Of a stretch of 64,000 bases of DNA, positions 20,129-63,979 are shown piece after piece. Positions within the stretch are counted from its first letter, which is position 1. Every line of letters begins with the position of its first letter. The notes beneath the pieces are model-generated. The model was not told the DNA's origin. It ran no database searches and was given only the letters and a program-made list of their open reading frames with translations. The DNA is taken from positions 160,704,001-160,768,000 of the forward strand of contig OZ024743.1 in NCBI GenBank assembly GCA_964016885.1, given 5' to 3'. The stretch comes from Eledone cirrhosa (taxonomy: Eukaryota). A program made the position numbers and the translations under genes.

Positions 20129-20131
<3 letters not shown>

Positions 20132-23091: not shown

Positions 23092-23261
23092 GGCTGCAGG
23101 TAGTGGCTTGATATTCAATCCAACGGACTTTCCAGTTAACCAACATCAATGACTGAGATTCAAGGAATAACAATAACAATAATAATAATAATAATAATAA
23201 TAATGAAGGAATTGTAATAATTGAATAATAATTGAATAATAATTGAATAATAATAATAAAA

Positions 23262-24440: not shown

Positions 24441-24610
24441 GGCTGCAGGTAGTGGCTTGATATTCAATCCAACGGACTTTCCAGTTAACCAACATCAATG
24501 ACTGAGATTCAAGGAATAACAATAACAATAATAATAATAATAATAATAATAATGAAGGAATTGTAATAATTGAATAATAATTGAATAATAATTGAATAAT
24601 AATAATAAAA

Positions 24611-25789: not shown

Positions 25790-25959
25790 GGCTGCAGGTA
25801 GTGGCTTGATATTCAATCCAACGGACTTTCCAGTTAACCAACATCAATGACTGAGATTCAAGGAATAACAATAACAATAATAATAATAATAATAATAATA
25901 ATGAAGGAATTGTAATAATTGAATAATAATTGAATAATAATTGAATAATAATAATAAAA

Positions 25960-27138: not shown

Positions 27139-27308
27139 GGCTGCAGGTAGTGGCTTGATATTCAATCCAACGGACTTTCCAGTTAACCAACATCAATGAC
27201 TGAGATTCAAGGAATAACAATAACAATAATAATAATAATAATAATAATAATGAAGGAATTGTAATAATTGAATAATAATTGAATAATAATTGAATAATAA
27301 TAATAAAA

Positions 27309-28487: not shown

Positions 28488-28657
28488 GGCTGCAGGTAGT
28501 GGCTTGATATTCAATCCAACGGACTTTCCAGTTAACCAACATCAATGACTGAGATTCAAGGAATAACAATAACAATAATAATAATAATAATAATAATAAT
28601 GAAGGAATTGTAATAATTGAATAATAATTGAATAATAATTGAATAATAATAATAAAA

Positions 28658-29839
28658 ATGAAGGAATTGTTAAGAACTGAATACATTCGAAGAGTAAGGA
28701 GCGTATTGAAGTCACATCTGAACAGCAGAAATGCCATAAGCGCAGTAAATTCCCGAGCTGTGTCTATTATTAGGTACAGTGCGGGAATTCTGAGATGGAA
28801 TGTTGCTGAACAAAAAGAAATGGATAGGAAGACTAGGAAGCTATTGACTATCTACAACATGTTCCACAAGAGGAGTGATGTCGATAGACTCTACCTAAGG
28901 AGATCTGAGGGTGGAAGAGGTCTTATCAGCATAGAGGACTGTGTTCAGATGGAGAAAAACAACCTATACAAATACGTGACCTATAGTAAGGAGCCAATGC
29001 TCAGAACTGTACTGAAGGAGGGGACAGTAGGCCAGGGGATGTCCAAGGAGGAAATAACATCAAGGAGGAAGAGCAGCCTTAAGGGAATATCCCGTCATAG
29101 TACCTTCTTTGAGAAAACTGAATTTAGAGATCCACAGACATGGAACTGGTTGAGAAGAGGAGACCTCAAAAAGGCTACAGAAGGAATGCTAATGGCTGCG
29201 CAGGAGCAGGCCCTCAAAACGAAGTGGTTGAAGCACCATATCTACAAGGAGGAGGCTAGCCCACTGTGCAGGATCTGTGGAGAGAGAGAGGAGACTGTGG
29301 TTCACATTGTGTCCGAGTGTAAACACCTAGCCCAGGCCCACTATAAGGGCTGGAGACACGATGTGATGGGCAGGGTGATCCACTGGCACCTGTGCAAAGT
29401 AAACAATTTACCACATTCTGAGAAATGGTATGAGCATAGGCCAGAGGCGGTGATGGAGAACAATCAGGTGAAGGTGCTGTGGGATTTTAGGATACAGACG
29501 GACAAAAAACTGGAACACAATAGACCTGACCTGGTGGTTGTGGACAAAGAAAAAAGAACGTGTCTGATTGTGGATGTGGCCTGCCCGTTCGACACGAGAG
29601 TGCAAGAGAAGGAGAGGGAGAAAATTAACCGATACCAGGACCTAAAGTGGGAGGTGAAAAGGATTTGGAACTGCCATGAAGTCAAAGTGATCCCGATTGT
29701 CATAGGCGCACTGGGGACTATCTCCAAAAGTTTCCAGGGATGGTTAAAGAAAATCGGCCCCTTCACGCTTTTTGGAACGCTTCAAAAGGCATGCTTGCTT
29801 GGAACAGCAAGAACCCTCCGATACGTCCTGAATATCTGA
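28658..29839 (+). CDS. Family A C-terminal ORF, unit 6
   Basis: 393 aa; lacks the 3-bp deletion of units 1-5. Confidence 0.55.
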   Translation: MKELLRTEYIRRVRSVLKSHLNSRNAISAVNSRAVSIIRYSAGILRWNVAEQKEMDRKTRKLLTIYNMFHKRSDVDRLYLRRSEGGRGLISIEDCVQMEKNNLYKYVTYSKEPMLRTVLKEGTVGQGMSKEEITSRRKSSLKGISRHSTFFEKTEFRDPQTWNWLRRGDLKKATEGMLMAAQEQALKTKWLKHHIYKEEASPLCRICGEREETVVHIVSECKHLAQAHYKGWRHDVMGRVIHWHLCKVNNLPHSEKWYEHRPEAVMENNQVKVLWDFRIQTDKKLEHNRPDLVVVDKEKRTCLIVDVACPFDTRVQEKEREKINRYQDLKWEVKRIWNCHEVKVIPIVIGALGTISKSFQGWLKKIGPFTLFGTLQKACLLGTARTLRYVLNI

Positions 29840-30036
29840 GGCTGCAGGTAGTGGCTTGATATTCAATCCAATGGACTTTCCAGTTAACCAACATCAATGA
29901 CTGAGATTCAAGGAATAACAACAACAATAATAATAATAATAATAATAACAATATAAAAAGCCCCGGCACCACCACCGACATAGCCAACAACAATAATAGC
30001 CAACTACAACAAAAAGTATATTATATTATTGTAAGG

Positions 30037-30081
30037 CACTGGGTGATTGCTGGCCTTGTGCCTGGAGTGGAGACAATTATT
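30037..30081 (+). mobile_element. Short 3' fragment of the SINE family, opposite orientation
   Basis: actgggtgattgctggccttgtgcctggagtggagacaattatt matches the SINE 3' end. Confidence 0.6.
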
Positions 30082-30166
30082 AATAATTTCATTCTTAAGC
30101 CACGCAATGCTCACATTAAGGAACCACTGATGATAATAACAATTTAAAAAAACAACAAAAAGAAAA

Positions 30167-33100
30167 CCCCGTGACCAAGAAATAACGGGATGGCGGCCGG
30201 CGGAGAATAGCCGTGTCTCTAGGAGAGAACGACCCCTCTAGTCTTGGTTGACACTCGTTCTAGAAGTGGTAACACGAAATGATTACCCCTTGGCGGATAA
30301 GGATAAAACGCGACAAAATAAAGTAAATGTCTAATGATAAAATCTCATACCGGATCGGCCGTCACCCGGGTAAAAAAGGGCCGCGTCCCTCAGAGAGGAA
30401 CCAGAATGGGGTCGAAAAATCAGCTAATGGTTCAAACCTTCCCATCACTTCGGAGCTGGAGACCTCCCATAACCGGAATACTCCTACTGTTGGCCCTCCA
30501 TGCTCACCACCAAGAAATCCAAAGAAAAAGAGAGAAAAATTGTCAAGGGAAGATAATAAAGAAGTCCTTGAGGCTTTCTACACTGCCATGTACTACCCAT
30601 CAAATACATCGAATACAGAACAGACATATATCAACTGGAAAAAGAAACATCCCGAAAACAGAGGCTATATTGACAGTAACAAACTAGCCAATATACGAAG
30701 AAATATTGTAAGAAAAAAGTTACTAACTGATATAGAAATTGATCAGATCAAGCTATTAGCACAAAGTCATCGAAGGGAAAATGAAACATGTGTCAGTGAA
30801 AACGAGGTAAACTGTAACACTTCGAATCCCGGGGTTGGGGCGGAATCACTGGCAACAGAACAAATTAAAGAAAGGATCGAAAAAGTGGTGGGAGTGCATG
30901 CTCAGGATGAAACTCGAAATGAAAATAATGAGATCGTAAATGATAAAGAAATGAATGAGAATGAACTTGCCAAATTGAAGGATGAAATTATGATCGAATG
31001 GATGAAATGAAAGAATCTGACATGGAGCAACGAGACACCCTCCCTAAGATCCAGAACTCCAAACAGAACCAAAAGATAGTACACAAGACTGACATAATTC
31101 TCAAAAACATTATCATCACAAACAAACTAAACATTACTGATTTAAATCATCTCTATTATGCATCGGCTAAAGTCACCACTCACTTATGTGGAGTGAAGAT
31201 GAAAAATCAAAGGAATTCCCACAAGAAATCTACTTGGCAAGAGCACATCAATTGCCAAATAAACCTTCTCCGATCTGACATAGAAATTTTAACAAACTAT
31301 AAAGTAGGTGAACATGTTAAACAAACTAAACTTAGAAAATTGAAAACAAAAGTACGGTATAAAATCAACATGTGACATAGACATGCTGATAGAAATAATC
31401 AAGCAAAAAGTGTCGGCCAAAGCTGCTCGTATAAGGCGCTTTGAAAAACGATCTAGATTCTATAAGGACAATAATATGTTCAAAAACAACCAAAGAAACT
31501 TCTACAGAAAAATTGGTAAGTCAACAATAACTGCTAAATCAATACCACCCAAGGTGGAAGTGCAAGAATTCTGGGAAAAGATCTGGGCCGAAGAAAGAGT
31601 TCATAACATACATGCCCCATGGATAGACAGACAAATGAAAGATACAGCTCACCTTGAGGAACAAACATGGGAAAATATAACAGTTGAACAGTTGCGCTTG
31701 GCTCTAAGAAAAACCAGCAAATGGAAATCCCCAGAAAAAGACAAAATACAAAACTTTTGGATAAATGCCTTCACAGAGTCTCATGAGCTGTTAGCCCAAC
31801 TTTACAATGAAATAGTTAAGGAGTCAGAAAAGATACCTTCATGGCTAGTTAACGGCATTACATTCCTGCTTCCGAAGAATGATGAGACAAACAATCCCAC
31901 AAATTACAGACCGATAACTTGCTTGACCACAATGTATAAAATTTTAACATCAGTCCTAACTGAATACACATATGACCACCTGATAACAAATGAACTATTT
32001 CCCATTGAGCAGAAAGGGTGTAAACGAGGCTCATATGGCTGTAAGGATCAGCTTCTGGTTAACAAAATGATACTGGAAGATTGTCATAATAGACACAAAA
32101 ATCTATCGATTGCTTGGATAGATTATAAAAAAGCATTTGATAGTTTGCCACACAGTTGGATTGAAAAATGTTTAGAGATTTTCAAAATATCCCCCGTTGT
32201 CAGGAGGTTTTTGTCATTCAATATGAAGACATGGAAAACGACACTCCTTTTGAATAGTGAAACAAAATCACTGGAAGCTGGAGAAGTTAATATTAATTGT
32301 AGAATTTTTCAGGGTGACTCTTTATCACCGCTTTTATTCTGCATCGCACTTATACCATTAAGTAAAATGCTCAATGAAACAAAACATGGATATAAAGTCT
32401 ATGACAAAACCATTAATCACCTGTTCTACATGGATGACCTGAAACTATTTGCAAAAAATGAGGAACAATTGGAAGGGCTATTATCCACTGTGAAGCAGTT
32501 CAGTGATGACATTAAAATGGAGTTTGGACTAGATAAATGCGCCAAAGCAACGTTCACCAGAGGAAAGCTGCTGAAGAGTTCAGACATTAATCTTGATCGG
32601 GGGAACGTGATAAGAGAACTTGATCAAGAAAAAACTTTAAAATATCTAGGTGTTTGTGAAGGAGACGGAATTAAGCACTCGACAATGAGGGAAAGGATAA
32701 GGAAGGAATGTTACCGCAGAGTAAGAGCAATCTTAAGAACGGAATTGAATGCAAGGAATAGGATCGATGCCATAAACACGCTTGCCATACCAGTAGTAAC
32801 CTACAGTTACAATGTCATCAACTGGTCAAGCACAGAGATCCGTAGGCTCGATACAAAAATTCGAAAATTATTAACCATGCACAGAATGCATCACCCTAAG
32901 GCAGATATAGATAGAATATGTCTCCCTAGGAAAGAAGGAGGACGTAGGTTAATCCAGTTAGACATTGCGTTCAAAACTGCAACAATTGGATTATCTACAT
33001 ATCTAAGGGAATCACATGATTGGATGATCAAACTCGTTTTGAAACACGAAAGCATCAAAAGATCATATTCCATTACATAAGATGCACAAAGATACAGTAA

Positions 33101-34120
33101 TGGACTACAAATTTCAGAAGTCCCATTTACTGCTGAAATGGAAAACACAGAAAAAGCAAAGCAGGTAAAAGTAACTGCAAAGAAAGAACTGCTACAGAAA
33201 CTGGCTAAGAAATGGCAAGAAAAGCCTCTGTATGGAAAATACCCAGAGCGAGCTAACAATCCTGATGTTGACAAAACTTTAACCCATCAGTGGTTGGCAT
33301 CCTCTGGACTGAAATCGGAGACTGAAGGACTGATTATATCGGCACAAGATCAGTGTCTGCCAACAAAAAATTACCAAGCCAACATAATAAAAAATGGGTG
33401 CAGCCCATTATGCCGTGTATGCAAAAAACAACCAAAGACCATTGACCATATAATTTCAATGTGCAGTCCTATAGCTCCAACCGAATACCTAAACAGGCAT
33501 GACAGAGCTGCACAATACATACATTGGATAATGTGTAAGCATTTTGACCTGCCCCATCAAAAGAATTGGTGGGAACATCAACCACCTCCCATACTTGAAA
33601 AAGATCACATCTCAATCTTGTGGAATTTAGCATCCAAACAAACCGAAAAATAGATGCAAACAGACCTGATATAATATTGAAAGACTTTCAAAAGAGGGTA
33701 TGCCTGCTAATTGATATGTCTGTTCCAATAGACAAGAATGTATCTATAAAAACATTTGAAAAATTGAGCAAGTATAAGGACCTGGAGATAGAAATTGGAA
33801 AAATGTGGAAATTGAGAACTAAAACAATACCAGTGGTTGTAGGCGCTCTGGGAATGATACCTAAGGGGTCTAATGATTACTTATCGCAAATCCCAGGAAA
33901 CCCGCGTATAGGAGAAATACAAAAGATAGTACTAATGGGAACTGCCCATATACTAAGGAAGTTTCTGTCAATATAAGTACATCACAAGTCTAAACACTAA
34001 AGATGCATGTGTGAGTATGTATGTTCTTTCTTGAACATGGCGGACCTTGTTGTCTCTTGAGGTCACTGGTTGTGACTTGGTGATAACTCGTATGAACATA
34101 AAGCAAGATAAATGCAACTG
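30167..34120 (+). mobile_element. R4/Dong-like family B, apparently full-length copy with disabled ORF
   Basis: GC-rich structured 5'UTR, ORF pieces 30327-33976, 3'UTR and (TAA)n tail; the 5' boundary is approximate. Confidence 0.88.
30327..33976 (+). pseudogene. Family B single ORF (N-terminal domain, RT, CCHC, RLE) with frameshifts and a stop
   Basis: Pieces 30327-31010, 30998-31375, 31383-33080 (NYRPITCL, WIDYKKAFD, HLFYMDD), 33138-33653 (CRVCx8HIISMC) and 33620-33976 (RPDIIL..LIDMSVP..K). Confidence 0.9.
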
Positions 34121-34235
34121 TAATAATAATAATAATAATAAAAAAGCATTCGATAGTTTGCCACACAGTTGGATTGAAAAATGTTTAGAGATTTTCAAAA
34201 TATCCCCCGTTGTCAGGAGGTTTTAGTCGTTCAGT

Positions 34236-35990
34236 ATGAAGACATGGAAAACGACACTCCTTTTCTATAGTGAAACAAAATCACTGGAAGCTGGAGAAGT
34301 TAATATTAATTGTGAAATTTTTCAGGGTGACTCTTTATCACCGCTTTTATTCTGCATCGCACTTATACCATTAAGTAAAATGCTCAATGAAACAAAACAT
34401 GGATATAAAGTCTATGACAAAACCATTAATCACCTGTTCTACATGGATGACCTGAAACTATTTGCAAAAAATGATGAACAATTGGAAGGGCTATTATCCA
34501 CTGTGGAGCAGTTCAGTGATGACATTAAATTGGAGTGTGAACTAGATAAATGCGCCAAAGCAACGTTCACCAGAGGAAAGATGCTGAAGAATTCAGACAT
34601 TAATCTTGATCGGGGGAACGTGATAAGAGAACTTGATCAAGAAAAAACTTACAAATATCTAGGTGTTTGTGAAGGAGATGGAATCAAGCACTCGACAATG
34701 AGGGAAAGGATAAGGAAGGAATGTTACCGCAGAGTAAGAGCAATCTTAAGAACGGAATTGAATGCAAGGAATAGGATCGATGCCATAAACACGCTTGCCA
34801 TACCAGTAGTAACCTACAGTTACAATGTCATCAACTGGTCAAGCACAGAGATCCGTAGGCTCGATACAAAAATTCGAAAATTCTTAACCATGCACAGAAT
34901 GCATCACTCTAAGGCAGATATAGATAGAATATATCTCCCTAGGAAAGAAGGAGGACGTGGGTTAATCCAGTTAGAAATTGCGTTGAAAACTGCAACAATT
35001 GGATTATCTACATATCTAAGGGAATCACATGTATGGATGATCAAACTCGTTTTGAAACACGAAAGCATCAAAAGATCATATTCCATTACAAAAGATGCAC
35101 AAAGATACAGTAATGGACTACAAATTTCAGAAGTCCCATTTACTGTTGAAATGGAAAACACAGAAAAAGCAAAGCAGGTAAAAGAAACTGCAAAGAAAGA
35201 ACTGCTACAGAAACTGGCTAAGAAATGGCAAGAAAAGCCTCTGTATGGAAAATACCCAGAGCGAGCTAACAATCCTGATGTTGACAAAACTTTAACCCAT
35301 CCGTGGTTGGCATCCTCTGGACTGAAATCGGAGACTGAAGGACTGATTATATCAGCACGAGATCAGTGTCTGCCAACAAAAAATTACCAAGCCAACATAA
35401 TAAAAAATGGATGCAGCCCATTATGCCGTGTATGCAAAAAACAACCAGAGACCATTGACCATATAATTTCAATGTGCAGTCCTATAGCTCTAACCGAATA
35501 CCTAAACAGGCATGACAGAGCTGCACAATACATACATTGGATAATGTGTAAGCATTTTGACCTGCCCCATCAAAAGAATTGGTGGGAACATCAACCACCT
35601 CCCATACTTGAAAAAGATCACATCTCAATCTTGTGGAACTTTAGCATCCAAACAAACCGAAAAATAAATGCAAATAGACCTGATATAATATTGAAGGACT
35701 TTAAAAATAGGGTATGCCTGCTAATTGATATGTCTGTTCCAATAGACAAGAATGTATCTATAAAAACATTCGAAAAATTGAGCAAGTATAAGGACCTGGA
35801 AATAGAAATTGGAAAAATGTGGAAATTGAGAACTAAAACAATACCAGTGGTTGTAGGCGCTCTGGGAATGATACCTAAGGGGTCTAATGATTACTTATCG
35901 CAAATCCCAGGAAACCCGCGTATAGGAGAAATACAAAAGATAGTACTAATGGGAACTGCCCATATACTAAGGAAGATTCTGTCAATATAA
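34236..35990 (+). CDS. Family B truncated ORF (RT C-terminal half, CCHC, RLE), unit 1
   Basis: 584-aa ORF with YMDD, CCHC and PD..D..K. Confidence 0.55.
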   Translation: MKTWKTTLLFYSETKSLEAGEVNINCEIFQGDSLSPLLFCIALIPLSKMLNETKHGYKVYDKTINHLFYMDDLKLFAKNDEQLEGLLSTVEQFSDDIKLECELDKCAKATFTRGKMLKNSDINLDRGNVIRELDQEKTYKYLGVCEGDGIKHSTMRERIRKECYRRVRAILRTELNARNRIDAINTLAIPVVTYSYNVINWSSTEIRRLDTKIRKFLTMHRMHHSKADIDRIYLPRKEGGRGLIQLEIALKTATIGLSTYLRESHVWMIKLVLKHESIKRSYSITKDAQRYSNGLQISEVPFTVEMENTEKAKQVKETAKKELLQKLAKKWQEKPLYGKYPERANNPDVDKTLTHPWLASSGLKSETEGLIISARDQCLPTKNYQANIIKNGCSPLCRVCKKQPETIDHIISMCSPIALTEYLNRHDRAAQYIHWIMCKHFDLPHQKNWWEHQPPPILEKDHISILWNFSIQTNRKINANRPDIILKDFKNRVCLLIDMSVPIDKNVSIKTFEKLSKYKDLEIEIGKMWKLRTKTIPVVVGALGMIPKGSNDYLSQIPGNPRIGEIQKIVLMGTAHILRKILSI

Positions 35991-36249
35991 GTACATCACA
36001 AGTCTAAACACTAAAGATGCATGTGTGAGTATGTATGTTCTTTCTTGAACATGGCGGACCTTGTTGTCTCTTGAGGTCACTGGTTGTGACTTGGTGATAA
36101 CTCGTATGAACATAAAGCAAGATAAATGCAACTGTAATAATAATAATAATAATAAAAAAGCATTCGATAGTTTGCCACACAGTTGGATTGAAAAATGTTT
36201 AGAGATTTTCAAAATATCCCCCGTTGTCAGGAGGTTTTAGTCGTTCAGT

Positions 36250-38004
36250 ATGAAGACATGGAAAACGACACTCCTTTTCTATAGTGAAACAAAATCACTG
36301 GAAGCTGGAGAAGTTAATATTAATTGTGAAATTTTTCAGGGTGACTCTTTATCACCGCTTTTATTCTGCATCGCACTTATACCATTAAGTAAAATGCTCA
36401 ATGAAACAAAACATGGATATAAAGTCTATGACAAAACCATTAATCACCTGTTCTACATGGATGACCTGAAACTATTTGCAAAAAATGATGAACAATTGGA
36501 AGGGCTATTATCCACTGTGGAGCAGTTCAGTGATGACATTAAATTGGAGTTTGAACTAGATAAATGCGCCAAAGCAACGTTCACCAGAGGAAAGATGCTG
36601 AAGAATTCAGACATTAATCTTGATCGGGGGAACGTGATAAGAGAACTTGATCAAGAAAAAACTTACAAATATCTAGGTGTTTGTGAAGGAGATGGAATCA
36701 AGCACTCGACAATGAGGGAAAGGATAAGGAAGGAATGTTACCGCAGAGTAAGAGCAATCTTAAGAACGGAATTGAATGCAAGGAATAGGATCGATGCCAT
36801 AAACACCCTTGCCATACCAGTAGTAACCTACAGTTACAATGTCATCAACTGGTCAAGCACAGAGATCCGTAGGCTCGATACAAAAATTCGAAAATTCTTA
36901 ACCATGCACAGAATGCATCACTCTAAGGCAGATATAGATAGAATATATCTCCCTAGGAAAGAAGGAGGACGTGGGTTAATCCAGTTAGAAATTGCGTTGA
37001 AAACTGCAACAATTGGATTATCTACATATCTAAGGGAATCACATGTATGGATGATCAAACTCGTTTTGAAACACGAAAGCATCAAAAGATCATATTCCAT
37101 TACAAAAGATGCACAAAGATACAGTAATGGACTACAAATTTCAGAAGTCCCATTTACTGTTGAAATGGAAAACACAGAAAAAGCAAAGCAGGTAAAAGTA
37201 ACTGCAAAGAAAGAACTGCTACAGAAACTGGCTAAGAAATGGCAAGAAAAGCCTCTGTATGGAAAATACCCAGAGCGAGCTAACAATCCTGATGTTGACA
37301 AAACTTTAACCCATCCGTGGTTGGCATCCTCTGGACTGAAATCGGAGACTGAAGGACTGATTATATCAGCACGAGATCAGTGTCTGCCAACAAAAAATTA
37401 CCAAGCCAACATAATAAAAAATGGATGCAGCCCATTATGCCGCGTATGCAAAAAACAACCAGAGACCATTGACCATATAATTTCAATGTGCAGTCCTATA
37501 GCTCTAACCGAATACCTAAACAGGCATGACAGAGCTGCACAATACATACATTGGATAATGTGTAAGCATTTTGACCTGCCCCATCAAAAGAATTGGTGGG
37601 AACATCAACCACCTCCCATACTTGAAAAAGATCACATCTCAATCTTGTGGAACTTTAGCATCCAAACAAACCGAAAAATAAATGCAAATAGACCTGATAT
37701 AATATTGAAGGACTTTAAAAATAGGGTATGCCTGCTAATTGATATGTCTGTTCCAATAGACAAGAATGTATCTATAAAAACATTCGAAAAATTGAGCAAG
37801 TATAAGGACCTGGAAATAGAAATTGGAAAAATGTGGAAATTGAGAACTAAAACAATACCAGTGGTTGTAGGCGCTCTGGGAATGATACCTAAGGGGTCTA
37901 ATGATTACTTATCGCAAATCCCAGGAAACCCGCGTATAGGAGAAATACAAAAGATAGTACTAATGGGAACTGCCCATATACTAAGGAAGATTCTGTCAAT
38001 ATAA
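36250..38004 (+). CDS. Family B truncated ORF, unit 2
   Basis: 584 aa, near-identical. Confidence 0.55.
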   Translation: MKTWKTTLLFYSETKSLEAGEVNINCEIFQGDSLSPLLFCIALIPLSKMLNETKHGYKVYDKTINHLFYMDDLKLFAKNDEQLEGLLSTVEQFSDDIKLEFELDKCAKATFTRGKMLKNSDINLDRGNVIRELDQEKTYKYLGVCEGDGIKHSTMRERIRKECYRRVRAILRTELNARNRIDAINTLAIPVVTYSYNVINWSSTEIRRLDTKIRKFLTMHRMHHSKADIDRIYLPRKEGGRGLIQLEIALKTATIGLSTYLRESHVWMIKLVLKHESIKRSYSITKDAQRYSNGLQISEVPFTVEMENTEKAKQVKVTAKKELLQKLAKKWQEKPLYGKYPERANNPDVDKTLTHPWLASSGLKSETEGLIISARDQCLPTKNYQANIIKNGCSPLCRVCKKQPETIDHIISMCSPIALTEYLNRHDRAAQYIHWIMCKHFDLPHQKNWWEHQPPPILEKDHISILWNFSIQTNRKINANRPDIILKDFKNRVCLLIDMSVPIDKNVSIKTFEKLSKYKDLEIEIGKMWKLRTKTIPVVVGALGMIPKGSNDYLSQIPGNPRIGEIQKIVLMGTAHILRKILSI

Positions 38005-38263
38005 GTACATCACAAGTCTAAACACTAAAGATGCATGTGTGAGTATGTATGTTCTTTCTTGAACATGGCGGACCTTGTTGTCTCTTGAGGTCACTGGTTG
38101 TGACTTGGTGATAACTCGTATGAACATAAAGCAAGATAAATGCAACTGTAATAATAATAATAATAATAAAAAAGCATTCGATAGTTTGCCACACAGTTGG
38201 ATTGAAAAATGTTTAGAGATTTTCAAAATATCCCCCGTTGTCAGGAGGTTTTAGTCGTTCAGT

Positions 38264-40018
38264 ATGAAGACATGGAAAACGACACTCCTTTTCTATAGTG
38301 AAACAAAATCACTGGAAGCTGGAGAAGTTAATATTAATTGTGAAATTTTTCAGGGTGACTCTTTATCACCGCTTTTATTCTGCATCGCACTTATACCATT
38401 AAGTAAAATGCTCAATGAAACAAAACATGGATATAAAGTCTATGACAAAACCATTAATCACCTGTTCTACATGGATGACCTGAAACTATTTGCAAAAAAT
38501 GATGAACAATTGGAAGGGCTATTATCCACTGTGGAGCAGTTCAGTGATGACATTAAATTGGAGTGTGAACTAGATAAATGCGCCAAAGCAACGTTCACCA
38601 GAGGAAAGATGCTGAAGAATTCAGACATTAATCTTGATCGGGGGAACGTGATAAGAGAACTTGATCAAGAAAAAACTTACAAATATCTAGGTGTTTGTGA
38701 AGGAGATGGAATCAAGCACTCGACAATGAGGGAAAGGATAAGGAAGGAATGTTACCGCAGAGTAAGAGCAATCTTAAGAACGGAATTGAATGCAAGGAAT
38801 AGGATCGATGCCATAAACACCCTTGCCATACCAGTAGTAACCTACAGTTACAATGTCATCAACTGGTCAAGCACAGAGATCCGTAGGCTCGATACAAAAA
38901 TTCGAAAATTCTTAACCATGCACAGAATGCATCACTCTAAGGCAGATATAGATAGAATATATCTCCCTAGGAAAGAAGGAGGACGTGGGTTAATCCAGTT
39001 AGAAATTGCGTTGAAAACTGCAACAATTGGATTATCTACATATCTAAGGGAATCACATGTATGGATGATCAAACTCGTTTTGAAACACGAAAGCATCAAA
39101 AGATCATATTCCATTACAAAAGATGCACAAAGATACAGTAATGGACTACAAATTTCAGAAGTCCCATTTACTGTTGAAATGGAAAACACAGAAAAAGCAA
39201 AGCAGGTAAAAGTAACTGCAAAGAAAGAACTGCTACAGAAACTGGCTAAGAAATGGCAAGAAAAGCCTCTGTATGGAAAATACCCAGAGCGAGCTAATAA
39301 TCCTGATGTTGACAAAACTTTAACCCATCCGTGGTTGGCATCCTCTGGACTGAAATCGGAGACTGAAGGACTGATTATATCAGCACGAGATCAGTGTCTG
39401 CCAACAAAAAATTACCAAGCCAACATAATAAAAAATGGATGCAGCCCATTATGCCGCGTATGTAAAAAACAACCAGAGACCATTGACCATATAATTTCAA
39501 TGTGCAGTCCTATAGCTCTAACCGAATACCTAAACAGGCATGACAGAGCTGCACAATACATACATTGGATAATGTGTAAGCATTTTGACCTGCCCCATCA
39601 AAAGAATTGGTGGGAACATCAACCACCTCCCATACTTGAAAAAGATCACATCTCAATCTTGTGGAACTTTAGCATCCAAACAAACCGAAAAATAAATGCA
39701 AATAGACCTGATATAATATTGAAGGACTTTAAAAATAGGGTATGCCTGCTAATTGATATGTCTGTTCCAATAGAAAAGAATGTATCTATAAAAACATTCG
39801 AAAAATTGAGCAAGTATAAGGACCTGGAAATAGAAATTGGAAAAATGTGGAAATTGAGAACTAAAACAATACCAGTGGTTGTAGGCGCTCTGGGAATGAT
39901 ACCTAAGGGGTCTAATGATTACTTATCGCAAATCCCAGGAAACCCGCGTATAGGAGAAATACAAAAGATAGTACTAATGGGAACTGCCCATATACTAAGG
40001 AAGATTCTGTCAATATAA
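38264..40018 (+). CDS. Family B truncated ORF, unit 3
   Basis: 584 aa, near-identical. Confidence 0.55.
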   Translation: MKTWKTTLLFYSETKSLEAGEVNINCEIFQGDSLSPLLFCIALIPLSKMLNETKHGYKVYDKTINHLFYMDDLKLFAKNDEQLEGLLSTVEQFSDDIKLECELDKCAKATFTRGKMLKNSDINLDRGNVIRELDQEKTYKYLGVCEGDGIKHSTMRERIRKECYRRVRAILRTELNARNRIDAINTLAIPVVTYSYNVINWSSTEIRRLDTKIRKFLTMHRMHHSKADIDRIYLPRKEGGRGLIQLEIALKTATIGLSTYLRESHVWMIKLVLKHESIKRSYSITKDAQRYSNGLQISEVPFTVEMENTEKAKQVKVTAKKELLQKLAKKWQEKPLYGKYPERANNPDVDKTLTHPWLASSGLKSETEGLIISARDQCLPTKNYQANIIKNGCSPLCRVCKKQPETIDHIISMCSPIALTEYLNRHDRAAQYIHWIMCKHFDLPHQKNWWEHQPPPILEKDHISILWNFSIQTNRKINANRPDIILKDFKNRVCLLIDMSVPIEKNVSIKTFEKLSKYKDLEIEIGKMWKLRTKTIPVVVGALGMIPKGSNDYLSQIPGNPRIGEIQKIVLMGTAHILRKILSI

Positions 40019-40277
40019 GTACATCACAAGTCTAAACACTAAAGATGCATGTGTGAGTATGTATGTTCTTTCTTGAACATGGCGGACCTTGTTGTCTCTT
40101 GAGGTCACTGGTTGTGACTTGGTGATAACTCGTATGAACATAAAGCAAGATAAATGCAACTGTAATAATAATAATAATAATAAAAAAGCATTCGATAGTT
40201 TGCCACACAGTTGGATTGAAAAATGTTTAGAGATTTTCAAAATATCCCCCGTTGTCAGGAGGTTTTAGTCGTTCAGT

Positions 40278-42032
40278 ATGAAGACATGGAAAACGACACT
40301 CCTTTTCTATAGTGAAACAAAATCACTGGAAGCTGGAGAAGTTAATATTAATTGTGAAATTTTTCAGGGTGACTCTTTATCACCGCTTTTATTCTGCATC
40401 GCACTTATACCATTAAGTAAAATGCTCAATGAAACAAAACATGGATATAAAGTCTATGACAAAACCATTAATCACCTGTTCTACATGGATGACCTGAAAC
40501 TATTTGCAAAAAATGATGAACAATTGGAAGGGCTATTATCCACTGTGGAGCAGTTCAGTGATGACATTAAATTGGAGTGTGAACTAGATAAATGCGCCAA
40601 AGCAACGTTCACCAGAGGAAAGATGCTGAAGAATTCAGACATTAATCTTGATCGGGGGAACGTGATAAGAGAACTTGATCAAGAAAAAACTTACAAATAT
40701 CTAGGTGTTTGTGAAGGAGATGGAATCAAGCACTCGACAATGAGGGAAAGGATAAGGAAGGAATGTTACCGCAGAGTAAGAGCAATCTTAAGAACGGAAT
40801 TGAATGCAAGGAATAGGATCGATGCCATAAACACGCTTGCCATACCAGTAGTAACCTACAGTTACAATGTCATCAACTGGTCAAGCACAGAGATCCGTAG
40901 GCTCGATACAAAAATTCGAAAATTCTTAACCATGCACAGAATGCATCACTCTAAGGCAGATATAGATAGAATATATCTCCCTAGGAAAGAAGGAGGACGT
41001 GGGTTAATCCAGTTAGAAATTGCGTTGAAAACTGCAACAATTGGATTATCTACATATCTAAGGGAATCACATGTATGGATGATCAAACTCGTTTTGAAAC
41101 ACGAAAGCATCAAAAGATCATATTCCATTACAAAAGATGCACAAAGATACAGTAATGGACTACAAATTTCAGAAGTCCCATTTACTGTTGAAATGGAAAA
41201 CACAGAAAAAGCAAAGCAGGTAAAAGAAACTGCAAAGAAAGAACTGCTACAGAAACTGGCTAAGAAATGGCAAGAAAAGCCTCTGTATGGAAAATACCCA
41301 GAGCGAGCTAACAATCCTGATGTTGACAAAACTTTAACCCATCCGTGGTTGGCATCCTCTGGACTGAAATCGGAGACTGAAGGACTGATTATATCAGCAC
41401 GAGATCAGTGTCTGCCAACAAAAAATTACCAAGCCAACATAATAAAAAATGGATGCAGCCCATTATGCCGTGTATGCAAAAAACAACCAGAGACCATTGA
41501 CCATATAATTTCAATGTGCAGTCCTATAGCTCTAACCGAATACCTAAACAGGCATGACAGAGCTGCACAATACATACATTGGATAATGTGTAAGCATTTT
41601 GACCTGCCCCATCAAAAGAATTGGTGGGAACATCAACCACCTCCCATACTTGAAAAAGATCACATCTCAATCTTGTGGAACTTTAGCATCCAAACAAACC
41701 GAAAAATAAATGCAAATAGACCTGATATAATATTGAAGGACTTTAAAAATAGGGTATGCCTGCTAATTGATATGTCTGTTCCAATAGACAAGAATGTATC
41801 TATAAAAACATTCGAAAAATTGAGCAAGTATAAGGACCTGGAAATAGAAATTGGAAAAATGTGGAAATTGAGAACTAAAACAATACCAGTGGTTGTAGGC
41901 GCTCTGGGAATGATACCTAAGGGGTCTAATGATTACTTATCGCAAATCCCAGGAAACCCGCGTATAGGAGAAATACAAAAGATAGTACTAATGGGAACTG
42001 CCCATATACTAAGGAAGATTCTGTCAATATAA
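40278..42032 (+). CDS. Family B truncated ORF, unit 4
   Basis: 584 aa, same protein as unit 1. Confidence 0.55.
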   Translation: MKTWKTTLLFYSETKSLEAGEVNINCEIFQGDSLSPLLFCIALIPLSKMLNETKHGYKVYDKTINHLFYMDDLKLFAKNDEQLEGLLSTVEQFSDDIKLECELDKCAKATFTRGKMLKNSDINLDRGNVIRELDQEKTYKYLGVCEGDGIKHSTMRERIRKECYRRVRAILRTELNARNRIDAINTLAIPVVTYSYNVINWSSTEIRRLDTKIRKFLTMHRMHHSKADIDRIYLPRKEGGRGLIQLEIALKTATIGLSTYLRESHVWMIKLVLKHESIKRSYSITKDAQRYSNGLQISEVPFTVEMENTEKAKQVKETAKKELLQKLAKKWQEKPLYGKYPERANNPDVDKTLTHPWLASSGLKSETEGLIISARDQCLPTKNYQANIIKNGCSPLCRVCKKQPETIDHIISMCSPIALTEYLNRHDRAAQYIHWIMCKHFDLPHQKNWWEHQPPPILEKDHISILWNFSIQTNRKINANRPDIILKDFKNRVCLLIDMSVPIDKNVSIKTFEKLSKYKDLEIEIGKMWKLRTKTIPVVVGALGMIPKGSNDYLSQIPGNPRIGEIQKIVLMGTAHILRKILSI

Positions 42033-42291
42033 GTACATCACAAGTCTAAACACTAAAGATGCATGTGTGAGTATGTATGTTCTTTCTTGAACATGGCGGA
42101 CCTTGTTGTCTCTTGAGGTCACTGGTTGTGACTTGGTGATAACTCGTATGAACATAAAGCAAGATAAATGCAACTGTAATAATAATAATAATAATAAAAA
42201 AGCATTCGATAGTTTGCCACACAGTTGGATTGAAAAATGTTTAGAGATTTTCAAAATATCCCCCGTTGTCAGGAGGTTTTAGTCGTTCAGT

Positions 42292-44046
42292 ATGAAGACA
42301 TGGAAAACGACACTCCTTTTCTATAGTGAAACAAAATCACTGGAAGCTGGAGAAGTTAATATTAATTGTGAAATTTTTCAGGGTGACTCTTTATCACCGC
42401 TTTTATTCTGCATCGCACTTATACCATTAAGTAAAATGCTCAATGAAACAAAACATGGATATAAAGTCTATGACAAAACCATTAATCACCTGTTCTACAT
42501 GGATGACCTGAAACTATTTGCAAAAAATGATGAACAATTGGAAGGGCTATTATCCACTGTGGAGCAGTTCAGTGATGACATTAAATTGGAGTTTGAACTA
42601 GATAAATGCGCCAAAGCAACGTTCACCAGAGGAAAGATGCTGAAGAATTCAGACATTAATCTTGATCGGGGGAACGTGATAAGAGAACTTGATCAAGAAA
42701 AAACTTACAAATATCTAGGTGTTTGTGAAGGAGATGGAATCAAGCACTCGACAATGAGGGAAAGGATAAGGAAGGAATGTTACCGCAGAGTAAGAGCAAT
42801 CTTAAGAACGGAATTGAATGCAAGGAATAGGATCGATGCCATAAACACCCTTGCCATACCAGTAGTAACCTACAGTTACAATGTCATCAACTGGTCAAGC
42901 ACAGAGATCCGTAGGCTCGATACAAAAATTCGAAAATTCTTAACCATGCACAGAATGCATCACTCTAAGGCAGATATAGATAGAATATATCTCCCTAGGA
43001 AAGAAGGAGGACGTGGGTTAATCCAGTTAGAAATTGCGTTGAAAACTGCAACAATTGGATTATCTACATATCTAAGGGAATCACATGTATGGATGATCAA
43101 ACTCGTTTTGAAACACGAAAGCATCAAAAGATCATATTCCATTACAAAAGATGCACAAAGATACAGTAATGGACTACAAATTTCAGAAGTCCCATTTACT
43201 GTTGAAATGGAAAACACAGAAAAAGCAAAGCAGGTAAAAGTAACTGCAAAGAAAGAACTGCTACAGAAACTGGCTAAGAAATGGCAAGAAAAGCCTCTGT
43301 ATGGAAAATACCCAGAGCGAGCTAACAATCCTGATGTTGACAAAACTTTAACCCATCCGTGGTTGGCATCCTCTGGACTGAAATCGGAGACTGAAGGACT
43401 GATTATATCAGCACGAGATCAGTGTCTGCCAACAAAAAATTACCAAGCCAACATAATAAAAAATGGATGCAGCCCATTATGCCGCGTATGCAAAAAACAA
43501 CCAGAGACCATTGACCATATAATTTCAATGTGCAGTCCTATAGCTCTAACCGAATACCTAAACAGGCATGACAGAGCTGCACAATACATACATTGGATAA
43601 TGTGTAAGCATTTTGACCTGCCCCATCAAAAGAATTGGTGGGAACATCAACCACCTCCCATACTTGAAAAAGATCACATCTCAATCTTGTGGAACTTTAG
43701 CATCCAAACAAACCGAAAAATAAATGCAAATAGACCTGATATAATATTGAAGGACTTTAAAAATAGGGTATGCCTGCTAATTGATATGTCTGTTCCAATA
43801 GACAAGAATGTATCTATAAAAACATTCGAAAAATTGAGCAAGTATAAGGACCTGGAAATAGAAATTGGAAAAATGTGGAAATTGAGAACTAAAACAATAC
43901 CAGTGGTTGTAGGCGCTCTGGGAATGATACCTAAGGGGTCTAATGATTACTTATCGCAAATCCCAGGAAACCCGCGTATAGGAGAAATACAAAAGATAGT
44001 ACTAATGGGAACTGCCCATATACTAAGGAAGATTCTGTCAATATAA
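42292..44046 (+). CDS. Family B truncated ORF, unit 5
   Basis: 584 aa, same protein as unit 2. Confidence 0.55.
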   Translation: MKTWKTTLLFYSETKSLEAGEVNINCEIFQGDSLSPLLFCIALIPLSKMLNETKHGYKVYDKTINHLFYMDDLKLFAKNDEQLEGLLSTVEQFSDDIKLEFELDKCAKATFTRGKMLKNSDINLDRGNVIRELDQEKTYKYLGVCEGDGIKHSTMRERIRKECYRRVRAILRTELNARNRIDAINTLAIPVVTYSYNVINWSSTEIRRLDTKIRKFLTMHRMHHSKADIDRIYLPRKEGGRGLIQLEIALKTATIGLSTYLRESHVWMIKLVLKHESIKRSYSITKDAQRYSNGLQISEVPFTVEMENTEKAKQVKVTAKKELLQKLAKKWQEKPLYGKYPERANNPDVDKTLTHPWLASSGLKSETEGLIISARDQCLPTKNYQANIIKNGCSPLCRVCKKQPETIDHIISMCSPIALTEYLNRHDRAAQYIHWIMCKHFDLPHQKNWWEHQPPPILEKDHISILWNFSIQTNRKINANRPDIILKDFKNRVCLLIDMSVPIDKNVSIKTFEKLSKYKDLEIEIGKMWKLRTKTIPVVVGALGMIPKGSNDYLSQIPGNPRIGEIQKIVLMGTAHILRKILSI

Positions 44047-44305
44047 GTACATCACAAGTCTAAACACTAAAGATGCATGTGTGAGTATGTATGTTCTTTC
44101 TTGAACATGGCGGACCTTGTTGTCTCTTGAGGTCACTGGTTGTGACTTGGTGATAACTCGTATGAACATAAAGCAAGATAAATGCAACTGTAATAATAAT
44201 AATAATAATAAAAAAGCATTCGATAGTTTGCCACACAGTTGGATTGAAAAATGTTTAGAGATTTTCAAAATATCCCCCGTTGTCAGGAGGTTTTAGTCGT
44301 TCAGT

Positions 44306-46060
44306 ATGAAGACATGGAAAACGACACTCCTTTTCTATAGTGAAACAAAATCACTGGAAGCTGGAGAAGTTAATATTAATTGTGAAATTTTTCAGGGTGA
44401 CTCTTTATCACCGCTTTTATTCTGCATCGCACTTATACCATTAAGTAAAATGCTCAATGAAACAAAACATGGATATAAAGTCTATGACAAAACCATTAAT
44501 CACCTGTTCTACATGGATGACCTGAAACTATTTGCAAAAAATGATGAACAATTGGAAGGGCTATTATCCACTGTGGAGCAGTTCAGTGATGACATTAAAT
44601 TGGAGTTTGAACTAGATAAATGCGCCAAAGCAACGTTCACCAGAGGAAAGATGCTGAAGAATTCAGACATTAATCTTGATCGGGGGAACGTGATAAGAGA
44701 ACTTGATCAAGAAAAAACTTACAAATATCTAGGTGTTTGTGAAGGAGATGGAATCAAGCACTCGACAATGAGGGAAAGGATAAGGAAGGAATGTTACCGC
44801 AGAGTAAGAGCAATCTTAAGAACGGAATTGAATGCAAGGAATAGAATCGATGCCATAAACACGCTTGCCATACCAGTAGTAACCTACAGTTACAATGTCA
44901 TCAACTGGTCAAGCACAGAGATCCGTAGGCTCGATACAAAAATTCGAAAATTCTTAACCATGCACAGAATGCATCACTCTAAGGCAGATATAGATAGAAT
45001 ATATCTCCCTAGGAAAGAAGGAGGACGTGGGTTAATCCAGTTAGAAATTGCGTTGAAAACTGCAACAATTGGATTATCTACATATCTAAGGGAATCACAT
45101 GTATGGATGATCAAACTCGTTTTGAAACACGAAAGCATCAAAAGATCATATTCCATTACAAAAGATGCACAAAGATACAGTAATGGACTACAAATTTCAG
45201 AAGTCCCATTTACTGTTGAAATGGAAAACACAGAAAAAGCAAAGCAGGTAAAAGTAACTGCAAAGAAAGAACTGCTACAGAAACTGGCTAAGAAATGGCA
45301 AGAAAAGCCTCTGTATGGAAAATACCCAGAGCGAGCTAACAATCCTGATGTTGACAAAACTTTAACCCATCCGTGGTTGGCATCCTCTGGACTGAAATCG
45401 GAGACTGAAGGACTGATTATATCAGCACGAGATCAGTGTCTGCCAACAAAAAATTACCAAGCCAACATAATAAAAAATGGATGCAGCCCATTATGCCGTG
45501 TATGCAAAAAACAACCAGAGACCATTGACCATATAATTTCAATGTGCAGTCCTATAGCTCTAACCGAATACCTAAACAGGCATGACAGAGCTGCACAATA
45601 CATACATTGGATAATGTGTAAGCATTTTGACCTGCCCCATCAAAAGAATTGGTGGGAACATCAACCACCTCCCATACTTGAAAAAGATCACATCTCAATC
45701 TTGTGGAACTTTAGCATCCAAACAAACCGAAAAATAAATGCAAATAGACCTGATATAATATTGAAGGACTTTAAAAATAGGGTATGCCTGCTAATTGATA
45801 TGTCTGTTCCAATAGACAAGAATGTATCTATAAAAACATTCGAAAAATTGAGCAAGTATAAGGACCTGGAAATAGAAATTGGAAAAATGTGGAAATTGAG
45901 AACTAAAACAATACCAGTGGTTGTAGGCGCTCTGGGAATGATACCTAAGGGGTCTAATGATTACTTATCGCAAATCCCAGGAAACCCGCGTATAGGAGAA
46001 ATACAAAAGATAGTACTAATGGGAACTGCCCATATACTAAGGAAGATTCTGTCAATATAA
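44306..46060 (+). CDS. Family B truncated ORF, unit 6
   Basis: 584 aa, near-identical. Confidence 0.55.
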   Translation: MKTWKTTLLFYSETKSLEAGEVNINCEIFQGDSLSPLLFCIALIPLSKMLNETKHGYKVYDKTINHLFYMDDLKLFAKNDEQLEGLLSTVEQFSDDIKLEFELDKCAKATFTRGKMLKNSDINLDRGNVIRELDQEKTYKYLGVCEGDGIKHSTMRERIRKECYRRVRAILRTELNARNRIDAINTLAIPVVTYSYNVINWSSTEIRRLDTKIRKFLTMHRMHHSKADIDRIYLPRKEGGRGLIQLEIALKTATIGLSTYLRESHVWMIKLVLKHESIKRSYSITKDAQRYSNGLQISEVPFTVEMENTEKAKQVKVTAKKELLQKLAKKWQEKPLYGKYPERANNPDVDKTLTHPWLASSGLKSETEGLIISARDQCLPTKNYQANIIKNGCSPLCRVCKKQPETIDHIISMCSPIALTEYLNRHDRAAQYIHWIMCKHFDLPHQKNWWEHQPPPILEKDHISILWNFSIQTNRKINANRPDIILKDFKNRVCLLIDMSVPIDKNVSIKTFEKLSKYKDLEIEIGKMWKLRTKTIPVVVGALGMIPKGSNDYLSQIPGNPRIGEIQKIVLMGTAHILRKILSI

Positions 46061-46322
46061 GTACATCACAAGTCTAAACACTAAAGATGCATGTGTGAGT
46101 ATGTATGTTCTTTCTTGAACATGGCGGACCTTGTTGTCTCTTGAGGTCACTGGTTGTGACTTGGTGATAACTCGTATGAACATAAAGCAAGATAAATGCA
46201 ACTGTAATAATAATAATAATAATAATAAAAAAGCATTCGATAGTTTGCCACACAGTTGGATTGAAAAATGTTTAGAGATTTTCAAAATATCCCCCGTTGT
46301 CAGGAGGTTTTAGTCGTTCAGT

Positions 46323-48077
46323 ATGAAGACATGGAAAACGACACTCCTTTTCTATAGTGAAACAAAATCACTGGAAGCTGGAGAAGTTAATATTAATTGT
46401 GAAATTTTTCAGGGTGACTCTTTATCACCGCTTTTATTCTGCATCGCACTTATACCATTAAGTAAAATGCTCAATGAAACAAAACATGGATATAAAGTCT
46501 ATGACAAAACCATTAATCACCTGTTCTACATGGATGACCTGAAACTATTTGCGAAAAATGATGAACAATTGGAAGGGCTATTATCCACTGTGGAGCAGTT
46601 CAGTGATGACATTAAATTGGAGTTTGAACTAGATAAATGCGCCAAAGCAACGTTCACCAGAGGAAAGATGCTGAAGAATTCAGACATTAATCTTGATCGG
46701 GGGAACGTGATAAGAGAACTTGATCAAGAAAAAACTTACAAATATCTAGGTGTTTGTGAAGGAGATGGAATCAAGCACTCGACAATGAGGGAAAGGATAA
46801 GGAAGGAATGTTACCGCAGAGTAAGAGCAATCTTAAGAACGGAATTGAATGCAAGGAATAGGATCGATGCCATAAACACGCTTGCCATACCAGTAGTAAC
46901 CTACAGTTACAATGTCATCAACTGGTCAAGCACAGAGATCCGTAGGCTCGATACAAAAATTCGAAAATTCTTAACCATGCACAGAATGCATCACTCTAAG
47001 GCAGATATAGATAGAATATATCTCCCTAGGAAAGAAGGAGGACGTGGGTTAATCCAGTTAGAAATTGCGTTGAAAACTGCAACAATTGGATTATCTACAT
47101 ATCTAAGGGAATCACATGTATGGATGATCAAACTCGTTTTGAAACACGAAAGCATCAAAAGATCATATTCCATTACAAAAGATGCACAAAGATACAGTAA
47201 TGGACTACAAATTTCAGAAGTCCCATTTACTGTTGAAATGGAAAACACAGAAAAAGCAAAGCAGGTAAAAGTAACTGCAAAGAAAGAACTGCTACAGAAA
47301 CTGGCTAAGAAATGGCAAGAAAAGCCTCTGTATGGAAAATACCCAGAGCGAGCTAACAATCCTGATGTTGACAAAACTTTAACCCATCCGTGGTTGGCAT
47401 CCTCTGGACTGAAATCGGAGACTGAAGGACTGATTATATCAGCACGAGATCAGTGTCTGCCAACAAAAAATTACCAAGCCAACATAATAAAAAATGGATG
47501 CAGCCCATTATGCCGCGTATGCAAAAAACAACCAGAGACCATTGACCATATAATTTCAATGTGCAGTCCTATAGCTCTAACCGAATACCTAAACAGGCAT
47601 GACAGAGCTGCACAATACATACATTGGATAATGTGTAAGCATTTTGACCTGCCCCATCAAAAGAATTGGTGGGAACATCAACCACCTCCCATACTTGAAA
47701 AAGATCAGATCTCAATCTTGTGGAACTTTAGCATCCAAACAGACCGAAAAATAGATGCAAACAGACCTGATATAATATTGAAGGACTTTAAAAATAGGGT
47801 ATGGCTGCTAATTGATATGTCCGTTCCAATAGACAAGAATGTATCTATAAAAACATTCGAAAAATTGAGCAAGTATAAGGACCTGGAAATAGAAATTGGA
47901 AAAATGTGGAAATTGAGAACTAAAACAATACCTGTGGTTGTAGGCGCTCTGGGAATGATACCTAAGGGGTCTAATGATTACTTATCGCAAATCCCAGGAA
48001 ACCCGCGTATAGGAGAAATACAAAAGATAGTACTAATGGGAACTGCCCATATACTAAGGAAGATTCTGTCAATATAA
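46323..48077 (+). CDS. Family B truncated ORF, unit 7
   Basis: 584 aa; private variants near the C-terminus. Confidence 0.55.
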   Translation: MKTWKTTLLFYSETKSLEAGEVNINCEIFQGDSLSPLLFCIALIPLSKMLNETKHGYKVYDKTINHLFYMDDLKLFAKNDEQLEGLLSTVEQFSDDIKLEFELDKCAKATFTRGKMLKNSDINLDRGNVIRELDQEKTYKYLGVCEGDGIKHSTMRERIRKECYRRVRAILRTELNARNRIDAINTLAIPVVTYSYNVINWSSTEIRRLDTKIRKFLTMHRMHHSKADIDRIYLPRKEGGRGLIQLEIALKTATIGLSTYLRESHVWMIKLVLKHESIKRSYSITKDAQRYSNGLQISEVPFTVEMENTEKAKQVKVTAKKELLQKLAKKWQEKPLYGKYPERANNPDVDKTLTHPWLASSGLKSETEGLIISARDQCLPTKNYQANIIKNGCSPLCRVCKKQPETIDHIISMCSPIALTEYLNRHDRAAQYIHWIMCKHFDLPHQKNWWEHQPPPILEKDQISILWNFSIQTDRKIDANRPDIILKDFKNRVWLLIDMSVPIDKNVSIKTFEKLSKYKDLEIEIGKMWKLRTKTIPVVVGALGMIPKGSNDYLSQIPGNPRIGEIQKIVLMGTAHILRKILSI

Positions 48078-48219
48078 GTACATCACAAGTCTAAACACTA
48101 AAGATGCATGTGTGAGTATGTATGTTCTTCTTGAACATGGCGGACCTTGTTGTCTCTTGAGGTCACTGGCTGTGACTTGGTGATAACTCGTATGAACATA
48201 AAGCAAGATAAATGCAACT

Positions 48220-48220
<1 letters not shown>

Positions 48221-48273
<53 letters not shown>
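48221..48273. repeat. (TAA)n microsatellite, right border of the insertion cluster
   Basis: Seen directly. Confidence 0.99.
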
Positions 48274-57752: not shown

Positions 57753-57902
57753 CTTTCTTTTTATTTTCCACTATATATTTAAAAGAATAGAGGTGTAACA
57801 CACGAGTTATGATATATTGGTAAAAGGAAAAGAAAATGCTGACAAATTGTTCCCAGTGAAAAATAGTTTAATTAGGAATAAGTAAAAATTAGTAATAAGC
57901 AT

Positions 57903-58081
57903 TTGTTTCTACCTTAGGCACAAGGTAAGCAATTATCCAATGCATTACTGGTACTTTATTTTATCGACCCCGTAAGGATGAAAGGCAAAGTCAACCTCGG
58001 GGGGATTTGAACTCAGATCGTAAAGGGACGTAACTATGCTGGAAAGCATGGTATCCGACCCTCTACTGATACTGCTAATCC
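57903..58081 (-). mobile_element. tRNA-derived SINE copy inserted in the Penelope 3' pLTR
   Basis: Same family as 11981-12162; absent from the matching repeat at ~62860. Confidence 0.88.

Positions 58082-63977: not shown

Positions 63978-63979
<2 letters not shown>

Follow-up and report, generated by a model that had tools for sequence, protein, structure and literature searches.

A seven-unit tandem array of a decayed Dong/R4-type LINE in Eledone cirrhosa, probably grown by unequal exchange after two insertions at one (TAA)n tract

Insertion-site preference makes tandem dimers of transposable elements (TEs), and in Drosophila the dimers of R1 and hobo have expanded into arrays, with unequal exchange named as "the obvious candidate" cause of the expansion (McGurk and Barbash 2018, PMC5932611, cited throughout from its available text); the head-to-tail arrays of the telomeric elements HeT-A and TART are mentioned in the same text. 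Here, a 64,000-nucleotide stretch of the Eledone cirrhosa genome (the window; C4:160,704,001–160,768,000 of the 3.0-Gb assembly) contains seven tandem units of a 5'-truncated long interspersed nuclear element (LINE) of Dong/R4 type, family B, lying directly behind a longer copy of the same family (FL). At a probability of roughly 0.8, we read this array as DNA-level copies of one decayed, 5'-truncated element (T) beside an independent family member, likely grown by repeated unequal exchange. The locus adds an example to a route already known and supplies a useful molecular trace of the exchange step.

The HeT-A and TART arrays are built by repeated retrotransposition and carry intact 3' ends and truncated 5' ends with varied truncation points. 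The present array resembles them in consisting of head-to-tail non-LTR (long terminal repeat) copies and differs in that a single junction was multiplied at the DNA level. In macrosatellites, human D4Z4 and DXZ4 among them, kilobase units of high identity stand in tandem and the terminal unit is diverged, whereas the array described here comprises only seven units over 14 kb, is known from one assembly and gives no sign of function. With R1 and hobo it shares head-to-tail dimers with target sequence at the junction, varied 5' truncations where insertions are independent, and identical junctions after expansion. It differs from them in its target, a dispersed microsatellite that also forms the element tail rather than ribosomal DNA or a short target-site duplication, and in its unit, which is decayed and truncated; moreover, the arrays in this genome are small (2–7 units) and retain a readable chimeric middle copy, a footprint that does not appear in the available text of PMC5932611. 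The general route suggested in the initial annotation, a dimer that then expands, is not new, double insertion followed by unequal exchange being already in print (PMC5932611). A search of the open-licence literature, supplements aside, turned up neither amplified Dong/R4 arrays nor chimeric middle copies.

Self-comparison of the window reveals a 2,014-bp period at 99.4% across 32.1 to 48.2 kb. The components of the array, in window positions, are as follows.

29949–34120, plus strand: FL, the upstream family B copy, near full length, 5' shortened, with its open reading frame (ORF) in three pieces
34121–34141, plus strand: first spacer, (TAA)7 if the ATAA shared with the truncation point is counted in
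34142–36134, plus strand: unit U1 (identical to U4), 5'-truncated inside the reverse transcriptase (RT) domain
34224–34226, plus strand: stop codon common to the seven units, found neither in FL nor in any dispersed copy covering the site (21 of 23)
34227–35990, plus strand: 587-codon open stretch, one per unit, with the C-terminal RT part, a CCHC knuckle (amino acids 400–417) and a restriction-like endonuclease (RLE) motif (from amino acid 484)
36156–38148, plus strand: unit U2 (identical to U5), preceded by a (TAA)7 spacer at 36135–36155
38170–40162, plus strand: unit U3, recombinant between unit types, with three private changes
40184–42176, plus strand: unit U4 (identical to U1)
42198–44190, plus strand: unit U5 (identical to U2)
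44212–46204, plus strand: unit U6
46229–48220, plus strand: unit U7, the most diverged, preceded by a (TAA)8 spacer at 46205–46228
48221–48271, plus strand: terminal (TAA)17 tail

All seven units begin at the same first base and measure 1,993 bp (1,992 bp in U7), following one another at a period of 2,014 bp that lengthens to 2,017 bp before the last unit. As kilobase units in tandem at 99.2–100% identity, they have the unit structure of a macrosatellite. The array of seven ~2014-bp units, its single shared 5' truncation and its ATAA microhomology, all reported in the initial annotation, are present in the assembly: the upstream copy reads ...TT-ATAA-AAAAGC and the junction ...TA-ATAA-AAAAGC. 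This junction pattern matches the 3.0-Gb assembly seven times, and all seven matches fall within the array. Counted with the microhomology, six spacers are (TAA)7 and the one before U7 is (TAA)8; without it, these counts agree with the (TAA)6 and (TAA)7 described earlier, but the spacers are not unusually short, given that the pure TAA run after dispersed family B tails has a median of 8 (n = 30). Five distinct unit types are present, differing by substitutions and a single 1-bp indel. The pairs U1/U4 and U2/U5 show no differences, mutual distances among U1–U6 range from 0 to 7 nt, and U7 stands 11–15 nt from the others.

Family B fits the Dong/R4 group as described in the literature, judged by its predicted RT, CCHC knuckle and RLE and by its (TAA)n target and tail. 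In RLE elements of this clade the RT is followed by a CCHC knuckle and then by the endonuclease (PMC7998251, PMC3812793; clade background in PMC4640811; all three cited from their available text), and a (TAA)n target is stated for Dong of insects, molluscs and cnidarians (PMC7998251, PMC3812793, PMC4640811). The same domain order and the same target are found in family B. Specifically, the unit contains an RVT_1 Pfam match, the CCHC knuckle and an RPD...D motif, the endonuclease motif being intact in the units; its matches among solved structures are five PDB entries, which are R2 proteins or 1,114-amino-acid RT-like chains. Longer homologues number 593 at E ≤ 1e-30 and include a Pediculus RT at 43% identity; Pediculus is among the species in the R4/Dong alignment of PMC7998251. 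Further membership traits are a single ORF, the absence of N-terminal zinc fingers and a diverged Myb/SANT domain. The N-terminal 227 amino acids gave no Pfam match, and a Myb domain was not searched by profile. A TAA run, of any origin, precedes 16 of the 22 scored family B 5' junctions (two loci counted twice), and a TAA run forms the 3' end in 23/23 dispersed copies. The family is abundant, with 2,498 exact tail matches in the genome, and none of six long copies has an unbroken ORF, the longest open stretch reaching 1,071 amino acids; Dong-R4 families are described as recently active in Octopus vulgaris (PMC13282606, available text). Amplified arrays with shared junctions set this locus apart from the Dong/R4 elements in the available text of PMC7998251, PMC3812793 and PMC4640811, where none is mentioned. 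Because the 5' half of the element is missing, the units are predicted to be unable to move on their own. The array is dead retrotransposon DNA, and no function is indicated.

Tree and allele comparison of the seven units, FL and 23 dispersed copies places the units in one clade (100/100) on a stem of 0.011 and FL in another subclade (95/91). FL differs from the units at 44–50 nt, including eight family-polymorphic sites at which the difference is concordant with subfamily. Moreover, 16 substitutions occur in 7/7 units and in at most 1/23 dispersed copies; they comprise 11 missense changes, 4 silent changes and 1 stop, a spectrum close to neutral expectation. FL in turn carries 13 strictly private changes, its terminal branch measuring 0.009 against 0.011 for the unit stem. 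The different subclades, together with (TAA)n at the junction, indicate a double insertion, and the 7/7 junctions together with the 16 near-private substitutions indicate amplification at the DNA level. On these comparisons T and FL are separate insertions from different subfamilies, in either order, and T had decayed neutrally before being copied as DNA, because all seven units carry its lesions. The order of insertion is not readable, since T is at least as diverged as FL; with T and FL at 0.011 and 0.009 and with TAA runs of any origin at the 5' junctions, the earlier proposal that the element targeted its own tail is not upheld. The proposal that a dimer came first and expanded afterwards at the DNA level agrees with the two insertions at one (TAA)n tract and the lesions common to all units.

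Analysis of the unit alleles reveals recombination within the array. At unit positions 396 and 652 all four allele combinations occur among the units, which requires recombination between them; U3, for example, combines the U1-type allele at 396 with U2-type alleles at 652, 1044 and 1288. Nine of the 11 differences between U7 and U2 lie in the last 514 bp, a boundary chosen post hoc. FL and the units have three minority alleles in common (344, 1447 and 1514), and no other FL-private lesion is found in the units. The rare allele context at position 344 has 15 genome matches, eight of which are FL and the seven units, and the context at position 1514 has 51, seven of which are FL and U1–U6, pointing to short-tract exchange between FL and the units. 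The exchange points here fall inside the unit, at 396–652 and 1350–1480.

The clearest footprint comes from sister loci at which a middle copy lies between an upstream and a downstream copy. For each middle copy, sites matching the downstream/upstream copy were counted left versus right of the best break. Clean chimeras, in which the 5' part corresponds to the downstream copy and the 3' part to the upstream copy, occur at four of the five sister trimers tested: C1:301.21 Mb (43/2 vs 0/20), C4:176.53 Mb (12/0 vs 4/20), C4:273.33 Mb (12/1 vs 1/17) and an array adjoining the window end (43/0 vs 1/20), which belongs to family A, the family whose own array also adjoins FL.

63975–64000 of the window and onward (C4:160767975–160775512): third array, family A, with an upstream copy, two units of 1,807-bp period with one junction, then an older copy

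A chimeric middle copy of this kind is what unequal exchange inside the element body is expected to leave. The clean breaks lie ~425–700 bp or more from the nearest spacer at all four loci.

Dimers are common in this genome. For the first 100 tails listed per family on C1, close neighbours, defined as lying on the same strand at no more than 10 kb, number 12/99 for family B, 16/99 for family A and 25 for a LINE family encoding an apurinic/apyrimidinic endonuclease (APE), versus 0.5–1.1 expected under a uniform distribution. The 12 family B neighbour loci comprise ten independent insertions with different truncation points and two with shared-junction duplicates; the 13 family A neighbour loci on C1 yielded no shared-junction duplicate, three of them being partly covered and two having ambiguous duplications. 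A second set of 245 family B tails, chosen around the spacer length of this array (90/90, 100/106 and 55/55 listed), contains equal-junction repeats at C1:170.97 Mb (3 units), C4:176.53 Mb (2) and C1:301.21 Mb (2). The locus at C4:273.33 Mb was found through the matches to the position-1514 allele context, and at C1:55.54 Mb two old copies have the same truncation, with no family B copy upstream of them. This brings the other family B loci of this kind to five, besides one family B fragment carried twice inside a duplicated unit of the APE family, again without an upstream B copy. Shared-junction duplicates thus stand at roughly 1–2% of family B loci. Among the loci examined no run exceeds the seven units of this array, most others having two or three. 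With five more family B loci and the family A array just past the window, the suggestion of a general route is borne out; the pattern of a longer copy followed by an amplified shorter one is not a rule, the upstream copy being shorter than the unit at two of the five family B loci having one.

Several observations were made beside these loci. A satellite of 71-bp period adjoins a family B dimer at C1:34.727 Mb. Duplications are seen at C1:82.78 and 83.88 Mb, comprising a family B match at 8,175-bp offset that runs past the stretch examined and a 522-bp segment at 99.2% flanking two nested A copies. A recurring 6.9-kb spacing on C1, considered as one mobile composite, was rejected, as the contents differ among its four loci.

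The APE family, which we take to be L1/Tx1-like, is represented in the window by a ~6-kb copy at 12164–17613 on the minus strand and occurs at many other loci, with a (TAA)n target and an orientation opposite to that of families A and B. It has 7,921 exact motif matches and commonly forms full-length head-to-tail clusters; the window copy is exceptional in being without a TAA flank. Having been considered as a non-targeting control, it was rejected when (TAA)n targeting was found. A second RLE-like family has (CATA)n flanks, copies in the flanks of the window, and, at C1:29482001–29492000, a tandem duplicate of 2,514 bp to which a third copy may belong; it may be a second microsatellite-targeting family; these flanks and its own tandem duplicate disqualified it as a clean non-targeting control. 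Its close neighbours number 2/99 (p = 0.01 against family B), and its shared-junction loci number one per 100 listed tails versus two for family B, with no demonstrable difference. Eight arbitrary 50-kb blocks set at round coordinates (400 kb) contain no kilobase-period tandem, only periods of 466 and 592, and few sequences of these families, a sample too small for a rate. These comparisons show (TAA)n targeting to make dimers, and no claim is made that it raises the expansion rate per dimer.

FL, annotated at first as a full-length copy, is at least 45 nt shorter at its 5' end than four of the five other long family B copies, and its ORF is broken. Its start lies right within the (TAA)n tail of the final unit of a family A array.

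20129–29948, plus strand: family A array, with six units of 1,349-bp period and a shared complex junction behind a 1.7-kb copy; units a1–a4 are identical; amplified separately

The two arrays had been taken as independent, and this is so in that families A and B are only distantly related (38% amino-acid identity) and were amplified separately; physically they are nested. At family A 5' junctions (window 18056–18118 and 21817–21914), duplicated short pieces of the element's first bases are interleaved with TAA, as expected from false starts or template slips on completing insertion, and the complex junction is copied in 6/6 A units.

The first events follow from the comparisons above. As (TAA)n is both the target and the tail of family B, its copies pile up head to tail; T and FL inserted separately at one (TAA)n tract, in either order, and T decayed neutrally before any copying. 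For the later events we propose the following. T would have paired with FL out of register, as units later did with one another, and a crossover or template switch would have duplicated the junction-bearing segment, a step suggested by the footprint at the four sister loci. Later exchanges may have made the inner units alike, while the 3' end of the last unit stayed diverged, and may have transferred short tracts between the units and FL.

Several points weigh against this account. Crossover and break-induced template switching are not separable by sequence alone, and the 23 dispersed copies, as the best matches to the unit, are not a random sample of the family. The chimera signal at this locus is mosaic rather than clean (35/1 vs 6/6 for U2 and U3; 32/1 vs 8/7 for U1 and U6), and several sites of upstream type are perhaps just mutations private to U7; the mosaic pattern is as expected after several rounds of exchange and partly compatible with new U7 mutations. 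Chimera breaks were chosen post hoc with uncorrected p-values, and at C1:170.97 Mb the signal is weak (13/3 vs 0/3, p = 0.02 uncorrected). The perfect identity of U1 with U4 and of U2 with U5 would also be given by the joining of two haplotypes. None of the read sets confirmed the array or its number of units, and there is more doubt about the count of seven than about the array itself. Finally, the account does not explain the three amplified arrays within 52 kb.

This clustering would find an explanation if groups of (TAA)n-targeting LINEs acted as satellite nurseries with local cis-acting instability, some of which enter repeated unequal exchange, perhaps primed by element-encoded TAA nicks; we consider this rather unlikely. 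Since each tail restores the target, several families would accumulate at a single site. The present cluster has its three amplified arrays in 52 kb against 0/13 family A neighbour loci on C1, and families A, B and APE each make up ~8% of the 264-kb region around the window (arrays included) versus 0.2–0.9% in the 400 kb of arbitrary blocks. If the nursery reading were true, the genome would hold dozens to hundreds of frozen first-exchange products with mappable breakpoints. Two further repeats were noted in this region. A ~190-bp short interspersed nuclear element (SINE) at window 5999–6397, 11975–12160 and 57874–58081, presumably resembling octopus SINEs, starts in TAA tails, once as a tandem pair. 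An RT-bearing element ~46–51 kb upstream of the window, which we take to be Penelope-like, contains a 1,620-bp inverted duplicate at 99.9% identity.

Nicking of the (TAA)n spacers by the element's own RLE, as the initial annotation suggested, could have started the exchanges and is not exclusive of unequal exchange. The family targets (TAA)n, its endonuclease motif is intact in the units, and the three arrays lie in a TAA-rich cluster. The breaks, however, fall inside the unit in this array and away from the spacers at all four loci with clean chimeras, spacer length is constant, none of the seven spacers has received a new insertion, and the TAA-targeting APE family also has shared-junction duplications (C1:45.78 and 55.44 Mb). 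Since breaks are internal, spacers stable and the APE family does the same, RLE nicking is not needed; we regard it as improbable, though nicking with long resection would be possible.

A false expansion in the assembly, for instance two haplotypes joined in tandem (U1–U3, then U4–U7), is decidedly improbable as an account of all or part of the array. Besides the paired unit identities, it could draw on the identity of family A units a1–a4 and on the length of the repeat, 18 kb being near the length of accurate long reads. Among the eight read runs compared, of 16 listed, X5 and X6 contain the family at depth, though neither gave a piece across the paired array-private sites; X1, X8 and X9 gave few contigs of the family and X10 none, the restriction-site-associated (RAD) run X14 is too sparse, and X11 matched in 0/12.8 million reads. 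In X5, where the family is at very high depth, no contig covers 9 of the 34 listed variant sites, including paired array-private sites, and in X6 no exact piece over 60 bp is listed. Such silence is no test, however, as the samples are other ones, the TAA junction is masked and contigs drop rare variants, and the runs give no evidence either way on copy number. Five distinct unit types imply several real units even if haplotypes were joined, and middle copies at sister loci carry private changes of their own. That the array is false altogether is slightly less probable still, and a wrong count of seven only somewhat unlikely.

Equally improbable is a circular intermediate: one unit would have left the locus as a circle (FL-to-T or TAA-to-TAA), undergone rolling-circle replication and returned as a concatemer. 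Identical junctions throughout would follow from it, a circle from an FL/T exchange would also be chimeric, and the pair at C1:55.54 Mb shares its truncation without an upstream family member. One burst predicts equal and identical units, whereas the array shows nested divergence (0 to 15 nt), the four-gamete pattern and a diverged last unit, and at most other loci the units number just two or three.

That the same truncated RNA was inserted seven times, by repeated retrotransposition or template jumping, is scarcely credible even for an abundant, young family often found beside itself, as truncation points differ in 10/12 family B neighbour loci, the unit junction has no dispersed relatives in the genome, and the units all carry one stop codon and the marks of neutral decay, lack the 5' half and have recombined with each other. 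An origin of the first unit from the 3' half of FL, duplicated in tandem through microhomology and without a second insertion, would account for the ATAA at the junction and for the three minority alleles in common, but carries next to no weight against the eight family-polymorphic differences, the different subclades and the absence of any other FL-private lesion from the units.

Read as DNA-level copies of one decayed element likely grown by unequal exchange, the array has its value as evidence in that the first exchange after a TE dimer is still readable in this genome, as chimeric middle copies. The three (TAA)n-targeting families have thousands of copies (2,498, 3,817 and 7,921 exact motif matches), enough for a complete scan to measure the frequency of expansion, the positions of exchange, and effects of endonuclease type or region.

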